Part shown: positions 6,797 through 13,077 of the stretch, one piece after another
Layout of the letters: each line of letters starts with the position of its first letter
How positions within the stretch are numbered: the stretch's first letter is position 1
Made by a program: the position numbers and the translations under genes
Notes under the pieces: generated by a model
Database searches by the model: none
The model's input: the letters and a program-made list of their open reading frames with translations, nothing else
What the model was told of the DNA's origin: nothing
NCBI GenBank assembly: GCA_964596185.1
Contig: CAZQUE010000020.1
Span: 1-58,346, forward strand
Reading direction: 5' to 3'
Source: an uncultured bacterium
GTDB lineage: Bacteria; Muiribacteriota; Ozemobacteria; Ozemobacterales; Ozemobacteraceae
DNA length: 58,346 nucleotides

Positions 6797-7147
6797 ATGA
6801 GCGAAGATAGAATTAAAAAATTTGAAGCTCGCCGCCAGGAGCTGGAGAAGCTAACGGATGAACAACTGAAGGCACGGTTCTGGGAACTTTGCAATAAAGT
6901 CGTTGAACCGATGGTTGAGTATGGTCGAAAATACACCTCACCGTCGATCGAGCGCTCGGTTTTGCTGCGCATGGGCATCGACAGCCAAACCTCGCAGGCA
7001 GTTGTGAGTCGCATAAATGAAGCCGGTTTGCTGGGCAAGGGTGCCGGCCATGTGGTTTTGAAGGTTTCACAAAAAAGAAATACCGATATTCGTCAGGCTG
7101 CCAAGCTGATTGCAGAAGATAAAACTGCCGTCGAAGGCCTTTTTTGA
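6797..7147 (+). CDS. oraS: D-ornithine 4,5-aminomutase subunit alpha (OraS-like)
   Basis: ~116 aa. Blocks TSPSIERSVLLRMG and GKGAGHVV match my recollection of Clostridium sticklandii OraS. AAGGA RBS. Immediately precedes an OraE-sized gene. Confidence 0.6.
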   Translation: MSEDRIKKFEARRQELEKLTDEQLKARFWELCNKVVEPMVEYGRKYTSPSIERSVLLRMGIDSQTSQAVVSRINEAGLLGKGAGHVVLKVSQKRNTDIRQAAKLIAEDKTAVEGLF

Positions 7148-7161
7148 GATAGGAGCCGAAT

Positions 7162-10849: not shown

Positions 10850-11951
10850 TTTTGTTGATCATCAGGAAAAAAGATTCAAGACTCCGCGACTGGAGATTTA
10901 TCCAGAGCGGATTCGCGCCAATGCCGCTGCAATCATTGAACAATGTCACGCGGCCGGAGTGAAAGTCGCTTGTGTAACCAAAGTAACGGCAGCTCACCCT
11001 CAGGTTGCTGCAGCGATGGTCGCCGGCGGTGCCGATATGTTGGCCGATTCAAGGATTGAAAACCTCTGGAAGCTACGAAATGCAGGATTCAAGGGGCCAT
11101 TCATGCTGTTGCGAATTCCGGCATTGAGCCAGGCTGATGCTGTGGTTGAAGCCGCCGACTACAGCCTCAACTCGAGTCTGACGACGATGAAAGCTTTGGC
11201 AGCGGCGGCAGTTCGCCGCAACATCATTCATCGGGTGATCATCATGGTTGACGTCGGCGACTTGCGCGAGGGCGTTTGGCCTGATCGGGCGGTTTCCCTG
11301 GTAAAAGATGCTGCAGCTCTTAACGGCATTGAAGTGGTTGGAATGGGCTGTAATCTTGCCTGCTATGGCGGCGTTATTCCTTCTAAAGAAAATATGGCGC
11401 TGTTCGTTGAAACTGTCGAAGCCTGTCGCAAGGCGAGCGGGCTGCAGTTGCCGGTGCTCTGTGGCGGCAACAGTTCCGGTTTGCCGATTCTTGCCGCCGG
11501 CGATCTCCCGAAAGAAGTGAATCTTTATCGTATCGGCGAAGCCATTATCCTCGGGCGGAATGTGATCGATCGCTCTGCGTGGCAGGGAACCCGGCAAGAT
11601 ACCGTCGTTGCCGTAGCAGAGGTCATCGAAGCGGAAGTTAAGCCGTCGATGCCGATCGGTGAGCGCGGTCAGGATGCCTTCGGCGAAACCCAGGAGTTTG
11701 TCGATCGTGGCAATCGGCGACGAGTGATCTGCAATCTTGGTCGTCAGGATGTCGTAGTTGATGGAATCACTCCGGTAGATGCCGGAATAATCGTTCTGGG
11801 CGGTTCGAGCGACCATCTTCTGCTCGATGTCCATGATTGTTCAAGAGAGCTGAAAGTTGGCGACGAGGTGGCTTTTTATCCGGGTTATGGTGCGCTGCTG
11901 GCCCTTTCAACTTCTGAATATGTTCATAAAGTCGTAATTTCAGGTGAATAA
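10842..11951 (+). CDS. alanine-racemase-fold PLP enzyme, YhfX/ornithine-racemase-like (putative orr)
   Basis: Start ATG at 10842, overlapping the upstream stop in ATGATTAA. The track ORF from 10638 is a TTG-extended artefact. 369 aa. Shows the TIM-barrel racemase N-domain pattern (VACVTKVTAAHP PLP-Lys region) and a C-terminal beta domain. Confidence 0.5.
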   Translation: MINFVDHQEKRFKTPRLEIYPERIRANAAAIIEQCHAAGVKVACVTKVTAAHPQVAAAMVAGGADMLADSRIENLWKLRNAGFKGPFMLLRIPALSQADAVVEAADYSLNSSLTTMKALAAAAVRRNIIHRVIIMVDVGDLREGVWPDRAVSLVKDAAALNGIEVVGMGCNLACYGGVIPSKENMALFVETVEACRKASGLQLPVLCGGNSSGLPILAAGDLPKEVNLYRIGEAIILGRNVIDRSAWQGTRQDTVVAVAEVIEAEVKPSMPIGERGQDAFGETQEFVDRGNRRRVICNLGRQDVVVDGITPVDAGIIVLGGSSDHLLLDVHDCSRELKVGDEVAFYPGYGALLALSTSEYVHKVVISGE

Positions 11952-13077
11952 AATGCTTTATCAGACCCACGTGCAGGTGCATTTGAACAATATCCGTTTC
12001 AATATCGAAAATATTCAAAAAGCAGTGGGACCTGAACGCAAGATTCTTATTGCGGTCAAGGCCAATGCCTACGGTCATGGTGCGGTTGAAGTTGCCAAAA
12101 TGGCAGAATTGATCGGAGTTGACTGGCTTGGTGTTGCTACCGTGCCAGAAGGTATTCAGCTGCGTGATGCCGGAATAAAATTGCCGATTTTAAAGTTCAG
12201 TCCGGTGTTCCCGGAAGAGATGACAGAGGCGATCAAGAATGATCTTGTTCTTGCCGTTGTTGATCTTGAAAACGTTAGAAAGCTGCAGAACTGTGCTGCT
12301 TCACTCGAACGCAAGGTGCGTGTGCACCTGAAAATAGAAACTGGAATGGGGCGGATTGGAGCTAATTCTCAGGAAGCACTGGATATTGCCAGAGAAATTC
12401 GGCAAAATTGCCCGAATCTTGAGCTTGAAGGAGCGATGACCCACCTTCCGGTTAGCGATGAAGCAAGTAAAACCTTTACTTCACGGCAGATCGAAAGATT
12501 CAAAAAGCACGTCAAGGCGATTGAAGAAGCCTTGAAGTTCAAATTCTCTCTGGTGCACTGTGCCAATTCAGGTGCGGTATTGGCTCATCCAGATGGCTGG
12601 TTGGACATGGTTCGGCCCGGAATTATGGTGTACGGCTTTTATCCTTCTCCCGAAACGCCGCAAACCATCGAATTGAAACCAGGTTTAAGCTTTAAAACCA
12701 GGGTTTCATTTTTGAAAAAAGTTGAAAAAGGTTCTTCTATCGGTTACGGCAGAACCTGGATAGCCCCTGAAGACACCTGGATCGCCACCTTCCCAGCCGG
12801 GTACGCCGACGGCTTCAATCGACTTTTTTCAAATGAAGGACGAGTTCTGGTCAAGGGAAATTCTTACCCGGTTGTTGGCAGGGTCTGCATGGACCAGAGC
12901 ATGTGTAATCTTGGACCGGAAACTGATGTAAAAGTTGGCGATATGGTAACTTTGATAGGAAGTGATGGTGAAGAGAATATTTCCGCTTATGAATGGGCAG
13001 AAAAGCTTGGCACAATTACTTATGAGGTTACCTGCCAGATCAATAGCCGCGTTCGAAGATATTTTGATCCTTTTTAA
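11944..13077 (+). CDS. alr: alanine racemase
   Basis: Canonical PLP motif VKANAYGHG near the N-terminus. ~377 aa. 8-bp overlap with the upstream racemase-fold gene. Confidence 0.75.
   Translation: MNKMLYQTHVQVHLNNIRFNIENIQKAVGPERKILIAVKANAYGHGAVEVAKMAELIGVDWLGVATVPEGIQLRDAGIKLPILKFSPVFPEEMTEAIKNDLVLAVVDLENVRKLQNCAASLERKVRVHLKIETGMGRIGANSQEALDIAREIRQNCPNLELEGAMTHLPVSDEASKTFTSRQIERFKKHVKAIEEALKFKFSLVHCANSGAVLAHPDGWLDMVRPGIMVYGFYPSPETPQTIELKPGLSFKTRVSFLKKVEKGSSIGYGRTWIAPEDTWIATFPAGYADGFNRLFSNEGRVLVKGNSYPVVGRVCMDQSMCNLGPETDVKVGDMVTLIGSDGEENISAYEWAEKLGTITYEVTCQINSRVRRYFDPF

Follow-up and report, generated by a model that had tools for sequence, protein, structure and literature searches.

Five genes of B12-dependent ornithine fermentation in an uncultured Riflebacteria genome, apparently separated from ord-ortA-ortB

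A 58,346-nt stretch of DNA from an uncultured Ozemobacteraceae bacterium (GenBank assembly GCA_964596185.1, contig CAZQUE010000020.1, positions 1-58,346) was analysed; the whole stretch is referred to below as the window. It carries an array of five genes at 6797-13077, as listed in Table 1. These genes encode the small and large subunits of D-ornithine 4,5-aminomutase (OraS and OraE), an accessory protein of the GlmL/MutL family, an ornithine racemase (Orr) that depends on pyridoxal 5'-phosphate (PLP), and an alanine racemase (Alr). The genes are tightly packed: a gap of 14 nt separates oraS from oraE, one of 151 nt separates oraE from the GlmL-like gene, and the GlmL-like gene overlaps orr by 8 nt. 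Depending on the start codon, orr and alr overlap by 8 nt (GTG) or are separated by 1 nt (ATG). The start of orr is most likely the ATG at 10842, and not the TTG at 10638 given by the open reading frame (ORF) finder. An initial annotation of this DNA had called an OraS/OraE pair with a GlmL-like partner and two racemases, one Orr-like and one a canonical Alr. The family profiles bear out these calls, with OraS/OraE and not KamDE as the mutase. The genes for the later steps, ord, ortA, and ortB, are not part of the array. The best explanation, with a probability of roughly 0.86, is that the locus belongs to the known gene set of B12-dependent ornithine fermentation, that the operon is split, and that ord-ortAB lies outside the window. 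Both the pathway and the gene set are already known, and the locus departs from them only in being physically separate from ord-ortAB.

Table 1. Positions and family assignments of the array and of the two genes that follow it.
Feature	Position in the window	Strand	Description and evidence
oraS, D-ornithine 4,5-aminomutase small subunit	6797-7147	+	116 aa; PF16552 OAM_alpha, 142 bits (cut-off 29.7)
oraE, D-ornithine 4,5-aminomutase large subunit	7162-9360	+	732 aa; NF040743 equivalog, 1340 bits (cut-off 800)
Hairpin in the gap between oraE and the GlmL-like gene	9393-9421	+	11-bp stem with 7 G-C pairs; terminator-like scan and sequence
GlmL/MutL-family accessory gene ('Or-4')	9512-10849	+	445 aa; PF13941 MutL, 475 bits; NF040744, 541 bits
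orr, PLP-dependent fold type III ornithine racemase	10842-11951	+	369 aa; NF040742 over full length, 397 bits
alr, alanine racemase	11944 (GTG) or 11953 (ATG) to 13077	+	TIGR00492, 369 bits (cut-off 168)
Protein without family match	13148-13579		143 aa; directly after alr
Beta-CASP metallo-beta-lactamase RNase	13597-15189		Second gene after alr

The mutase has the same two-subunit organisation as the crystallised enzyme of Clostridium sticklandii (Acetoanaerobium; PDB 3KOW-3KP1). Residues 5-109 of the window OraS align with C. sticklandii OraS (3KOW chain E, E=1e-30). OraE aligns over its full length with 3KOW_A (1084 bits, 65% identity over 720 aligned residues), and its match to NF040743 spans residues 5-729 of 732. 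The same three OraE domains are found, in the order PF09043 PLP-binding TIM barrel, PF16554 OAM dimerisation domain, and PF02310 B12-binding Rossmann domain. The motifs GEDEHSVG, which contains the His-on DEHSVG (DxHxxG), and DIKHGG, which contains the PLP lysine, are identical to those of 3KOW. A set of 172 other OraE sequences, the crystallised enzyme included, defines 386 columns with a conservation of 98% or more, and the window OraE matches all of them. Nine OraE residues bind PLP, D-ornithine, or the adenosyl ribose: Glu81, Tyr160, Ser162, His182, His225, Arg297, Gln299, Glu338, and Lys629 (PMC3958899). All nine fall in blocks that are identical between the window OraE and C. sticklandii OraE; they were placed by motif and not by number, because the PDB SEQRES index and the numbering of the paper are offset by 0 or 3. 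The window protein differs from the C. sticklandii enzyme in coming from another phylum (Riflebacteria) and in being known from sequence alone.

The lysine 5,6-aminomutase KamDE (PDB 1XRS and 8T0V) belongs to the same superfamily and uses the same adenosylcobalamin (AdoCbl) and PLP chemistry. The window OraE misses both lysine 5,6-aminomutase models (156 and 148 bits, with cut-offs of 600 and 280, respectively) and reaches only 125-134 bits to the KamD/KamE structures. The subunit split of KamDE is also different, and the window protein is not a member of that group. The initial annotation had considered that the pair might be KamDE-like and might fail to align with OraS/OraE over full length; the alignment to 3KOW_A and the low scores on the lysine models remove this doubt. 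By every sequence criterion applied, the locus belongs to the OraSE family, and no sign of a different substrate was seen in the OraE sequence.

For a survey of gene order, one genome per species was scanned with a Riflebacteria OrtB, which gave 80 loci, and the eight genes were mapped by tblastn. Outside Riflebacteria, the complete set of eight genes occurs in 33 loci, arranged as ord-ortA-ortB-oraS-oraE-glmL-orr-alr. These loci occur in Anaerolineae (including the cultured Levilinea saccharolytica), Holophagae, Thermoanaerobaculia, Spirochaetota, and the actinobacterium Mobilicoccus caccae. Because the complete loci end in oraS-oraE-glmL-orr-alr, the five window genes correspond to the 3' half of a widespread operon. 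Compared with the eight-gene operons of Candidatus Ozemobacter, the Levilinea-related Anaerolineae, Holophagae, Spirochaetota, and M. caccae, the window has the last five genes with unchanged order and equally tight spacing, and OraE is 73-85% identical; in the window lineage, however, the first three genes are separated from the rest. The initial annotation had expected ord/ortAB downstream of the array. This premise does not hold, as ord/ortAB lie upstream of oraS in the 33 complete loci and in the Candidatus Ozemobacter genome. On this upstream side, the usual one for ord-ortAB, the window covers no more than 6.8 kb before oraS, and Pfam scans of its other large ORFs returned unrelated functions. 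The oxidative L-ornithine cluster of C. sticklandii and C. difficile (orr, oraS, oraE, ord, ortA, ortB, and 'Or-4') has the racemase, the mutase, and the accessory protein in common with the window. In the window, by contrast, ord-ortAB is not contiguous with the other genes, alr is appended, and Orr and Or-4 are of the non-Firmicutes clade.

The nearest OraE homologues (80-99% identical) come from metagenome-assembled genomes labelled Candidatus Riflebacteria, Rifleibacteriota, or Ozemobacteraceae, and several are already named OraE by NCBI. In the Candidatus Ozemobacter genome (locus L003, OraE 85%), all eight genes are contiguous. In locus L005 (OraE 87%), ord-ortA-ortB lies 6 kb upstream of oraS with four genes between, one of which is an IS110-family transposase (8440-9465). 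In GCA_054681895.1 (OraE 92%), the closest sequenced relative, the five genes are followed by the same 143-aa, beta-CASP, and vault/SPFH-like genes as in the window, and no ord/ortAB is found within 10 kb of the ora genes. They do occur on the same 112,189-bp contig: ord-ortA-ortB spans about 66.4-69.1 kb, and oraS begins near 87.1 kb. Both lie on one strand, and the 18 kb that separate ortB from oraS hold about a dozen unrelated genes. The Ord, OrtA, and OrtB of this genome all pass the NCBIfam equivalog cut-offs (534 bits against 400, 116 against 70, and 807 against 550, respectively). A further 15 species-level loci of Riflebacteria (L007-L022 and L027) contain ortA-ortB, some of them together with ord, but lack oraSE in the available flank; at least 12 of them have at least 9 kb of downstream sequence. 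The split ornithine operon is the rule in Riflebacteria.

The surroundings of the array were also compared. The block at 518-6606, upstream of oraS, encodes a 1018-aa response-regulator/PPDK_N protein, a rhodanese, a 188-aa protein, a Cys-rich 174-aa protein, and a 187-aa membrane protein. It is syntenic in four relatives (L092, L093, L096, and L099) at about 78-80% identity, and the Cys-rich protein is found in L092 only among them. Because the block is not followed by ora genes in these relatives, the ora module has been inserted or moved in the window. As a separate observation, mobile-element genes are located at or near the cluster edges in L003 and L005; in L003, a Transposase_31 gene directly follows alr (16300-17310).

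Metagenome contigs gave indirect evidence on the window's own species. One contig of JGI sample 3300042269 (L142, Ga0451652_006750) matches window 4995-12891 with 98.3% DNA identity and an unchanged gene order; it shares two small upstream genes with the window, and the same 116-aa oraS is called. The same sample and four sister samples contain ord-ortA-ortB contigs (L138, which is Ga0451652_002486, together with L137 and L139-L141). The OrtB of GCA_054681895.1 (P0126) has its nearest relative in the OrtB of these contigs (P0144), with 88.8% identity. The tetranucleotide correlation to the window is 0.95-0.96 for the ord-ortAB contigs (0.95 for L138) and 0.966 for L142, compared with 0.69-0.92 for the other Riflebacteria loci tested. 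L138 shares 73-76% nucleotide identity with GCA_054681895.1, and the ora genes share 70-79%, which is a parallel divergence. The L138 contig is likely to come from the window's species. In L137-L139 (JGI samples 3300042258-3300042273), ord-ortA-ortB stands alone; genes for GcvP1/P2, GcvH, GcvT, SHMT, and formate-tetrahydrofolate ligase lie beside it on the opposite strand. An exact match to the window OraE was found only on a 3.6-kb Logan contig. The organism's OrtB was sought in Logan sample SRR13617028, but the nearest OrtB hits (P0129 and P0137) belong to different samples. The 1018-aa protein has a 99% match on a 3.4-kb contig, which extends about 0.7 kb beyond the window edge, and a search of JGI metagenome contigs with the exact 52-nt left-edge pattern gave no match.

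Orr and the GlmL-like protein score lower on their reference models. PF01168 is present in Orr, and its score on NF040742 is below the cut-off of 480. For the GlmL-like protein, which is encoded after oraE, the best family is NF040744, on which it stays below the cut-off of 600; the GlmL model NF040745 gives 364 bits. The orthologues of these two proteins in complete operons score in the same range: the GlmL-like orthologues inside complete eight-gene operons reach 494-545 bits on NF040744, and the Orr of L. saccharolytica, M. caccae, and Candidatus Ozemobacter reach 388-397 bits on NF040742. Since the same scores occur in complete operons, the low values point to models built on Firmicutes and not to a different function. 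Judged by these sequence scores, the shortfall is a clade trait, and the whole clade outside Firmicutes misses the cut-offs. The ornithine racemase OrnR is a fold type III PLP enzyme with catalytic Lys-36 and Cys-164, in which the Cys replaces the Tyr of alanine racemase (PMC13397332). In the window Orr, Lys47 and Cys174-Tyr175 are invariant in 49 orthologues, and Lys47 and Cys174 correspond to Lys-36 and Cys-164 of OrnR after an N-terminal offset of about 11-13 residues. A PDB search found no relative of Orr among the solved structures. The presumed role of the GlmL-like protein is that of a chaperone or reactivase of the B12 mutase.

A pathway can be proposed on the scheme for oxidative ornithine degradation (PMC8803604), of which the end products are acetyl-CoA and D-alanine (PMC13397332). 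Orr would convert L-ornithine to D-ornithine. OraS/OraE, with AdoCbl and PLP, would then move the 5-amino group to C4 and yield (2R,4S)-2,4-diaminopentanoate, while the GlmL-like protein presumably services the B12 enzyme. Ord would convert 2,4-diaminopentanoate to 2-amino-4-oxopentanoate, with release of NH3 and NAD(P)H, and OrtAB would use CoA to cleave this product into acetyl-CoA and D-alanine. Finally, Alr would return D-alanine to the L-form for further catabolism. Insertions and rearrangements in Riflebacteria have probably parted ord-ortA-ortB from oraS.

The role of the terminal alr allows two readings. The window Alr contains both PF01168 and PF00842, and its VKANAYGHG motif, PLP lysine, and Tyr265 are conserved or invariant. 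Sufficient downstream sequence is available for 44 loci of other phyla. Of these, 34 have alr after orr, and in 29 the distance is no more than 300 nt; alr is the regular eighth and last gene of the ornithine-degradation operon outside Firmicutes. This position fits the pathway because the thiolase OrtAB releases D-alanine (PMC13397332), and the gene linkage suggests that Alr presumably converts D-alanine to L-alanine for catabolism. The pathway descriptions consulted for ornithine degradation do not name alr as a pathway gene. It might alternatively be a housekeeping alanine racemase that supplies D-alanine for peptidoglycan and is merely co-transcribed. Such a role would agree with the canonical nature of the protein, with the 10 of 44 loci in which alr does not follow orr, so that it is not obligatory, and with one paper in which the predicted product of the pathway is L-alanine (PMC8803604). 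It is nevertheless unlikely, considering that the terminal position is kept in at least five phyla, even where the surrounding genes differ, and that the D-alanine from OrtAB needs a racemase or a D-specific enzyme to be catabolised.

Several points weigh against a split operon of the known pathway in this genome. In a tblastn search with the Ord, OrtA, and OrtB of two Riflebacteria relatives, no match was found in the whole 58-kb window (best E=0.29). The Orr and GlmL-like scores are under the curated cut-offs of NCBIfam. The sequence upstream of oraS differs between the window and GCA_054681895.1, and the distance and location of ord-ortAB therefore cannot be extrapolated from that genome. 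The GC content at third codon positions is 0.58-0.60 for ord/ortB on L138 and 0.45-0.48 for oraE/alr in the window; because of this higher value, co-membership of L138 is likely but short of proof. The presence of ord-ortAB in the window's own genome is probable, judging from the relatives and the co-occurring metagenome contig, and the enzyme activities of all pathway proteins of the window and of Riflebacteria are predicted ones, deduced from their sequences.

A true loss of ord/ortAB would account for the empty 58 kb. The oraSE-glmL-orr-alr genes would then act alone, for example to supply 2,4-diaminopentanoate as a building block or final product, or they would be a decaying remnant. The position of the locus is not conserved, as the upstream block occurs without ora genes in relatives, which shows that the module moves independently. 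On the other hand, ord-ortAB is found in every Riflebacteria relative with enough sequence (adjacent, 6 kb, or 18 kb away), and a matching contig occurs in the same metagenome as the 98.3%-identical strain. The five proteins are also intact and keep their strongly conserved columns, save for a small number of conservative substitutions (L to F in Orr, L to I in the GlmL-like protein), and a retained alr is sensible only with the D-alanine from OrtAB. A true loss is thus improbable. The chance that the organism lacks ord/ortAB and uses the module alone, either for 2,4-diaminopentanoate or on a different diamino acid, is slight. As its other alternative, the initial annotation offered that the aminomutase works on another D-amino acid in a different metabolic context; lysine or another diamino acid would be an example. 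The absence of ord/ortAB nearby and the low scores of Orr (397 bits, cut-off 480) and the GlmL-like protein (541 bits, cut-off 600) would be consistent with this proposal, yet the same sub-cut-off scores are seen in the complete ornithine operons of the cultured L. saccharolytica and M. caccae. OraE scores 1340 bits on the ornithine model and is far from both lysine models, all 386 conserved columns are unchanged, the nine contact-residue blocks are identical to those of C. sticklandii OraE, and Orr keeps its catalytic Lys and Cys; another substrate is therefore very improbable. The known ornithine pathway with a split operon remains the preferred reading. The initial annotation had allowed that the pathway genes lie elsewhere, which would make the locus ordinary. 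For the relatives this is the case (in GCA_054681895.1 the genes share contig and strand with oraS and lie 18 kb before it), and it is supported by the JGI ord-ortAB contig; for the window's own species, the relatives and this contig make it probable.

The gap between oraE and the GlmL-like gene is also present in relatives, where it measures 43-317 nt. The hairpin inside it has no good T-tract. Judging by its sequence, it may act as an attenuator within the operon or stabilise the mRNA, and it could set the ratio of mutase to accessory transcripts. Apart from this hairpin, the scan for promoters and terminators gave nothing better than shuffled sequence, and the operon boundaries are therefore defined by gene spacing alone. 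When the whole window was scanned against Rfam, no RNA family reached its gathering threshold, and riboswitches, including those for cobalamin, were likewise not found.

Downstream of alr, the initial annotation had read a hypothetical protein and an RNase-like metallo-beta-lactamase hydrolase, and these are the 143-aa protein without a family and the beta-CASP RNase. The pair is kept in three Riflebacteria (window 13148-15189, L002 16303-18345, and L003 20320-22205); in L003, transposase and TldD/PmbA genes lie between alr and the pair. The best NCBIfam match of the beta-CASP RNase is the type VII CRISPR Cas14 model, with 375 bits, far under the cut-off of 800. The next gene (window 15275-16672, minus strand; L002 18398-19795) encodes a 465-aa protein with a Vault_3 repeat, an MVP shoulder, and SPFH/Band 7 domains. 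This vault-like gene, which is unusual for a bacterium, also lies beside the beta-CASP gene in the closest relative. A bacterial alpha-2-macroglobulin of 2000 aa (MG2, A2M bait region, A2M, and bMG10) is encoded at 26576-32578 on the minus strand, and a similar gene is found near the ornithine operon of L003. The region at 41744-57010 looks like a defence or mobile island. It encodes a 1964-aa protein (DUF4011, an SF1 helicase of AAA_11/12 type, REase_MTES_1575, and DUF3320), type I restriction-modification genes (an HsdS fragment, HsdM, a Bro-N protein, and a complete HsdS), and a 1630-aa protein without a Pfam match. The segment with this last protein drops to a GC content of about 35%, compared with about 47% elsewhere.

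In summary, the locus calls for caution in reading gene neighbourhoods: where a window stops 6.8 kb short of the gene in question, missing neighbours should not be taken for new biology. The NCBIfam cut-offs for Orr and the GlmL-like protein are an annotation blind spot outside Firmicutes. Because they miss the non-Firmicutes clade, automated pathway calls under-report the ornithine pathway there. The array adds a Riflebacteria example of a known amino-acid fermentation, and suggests that uncultured members of this group can ferment ornithine to acetyl-CoA, ammonia, and alanine.

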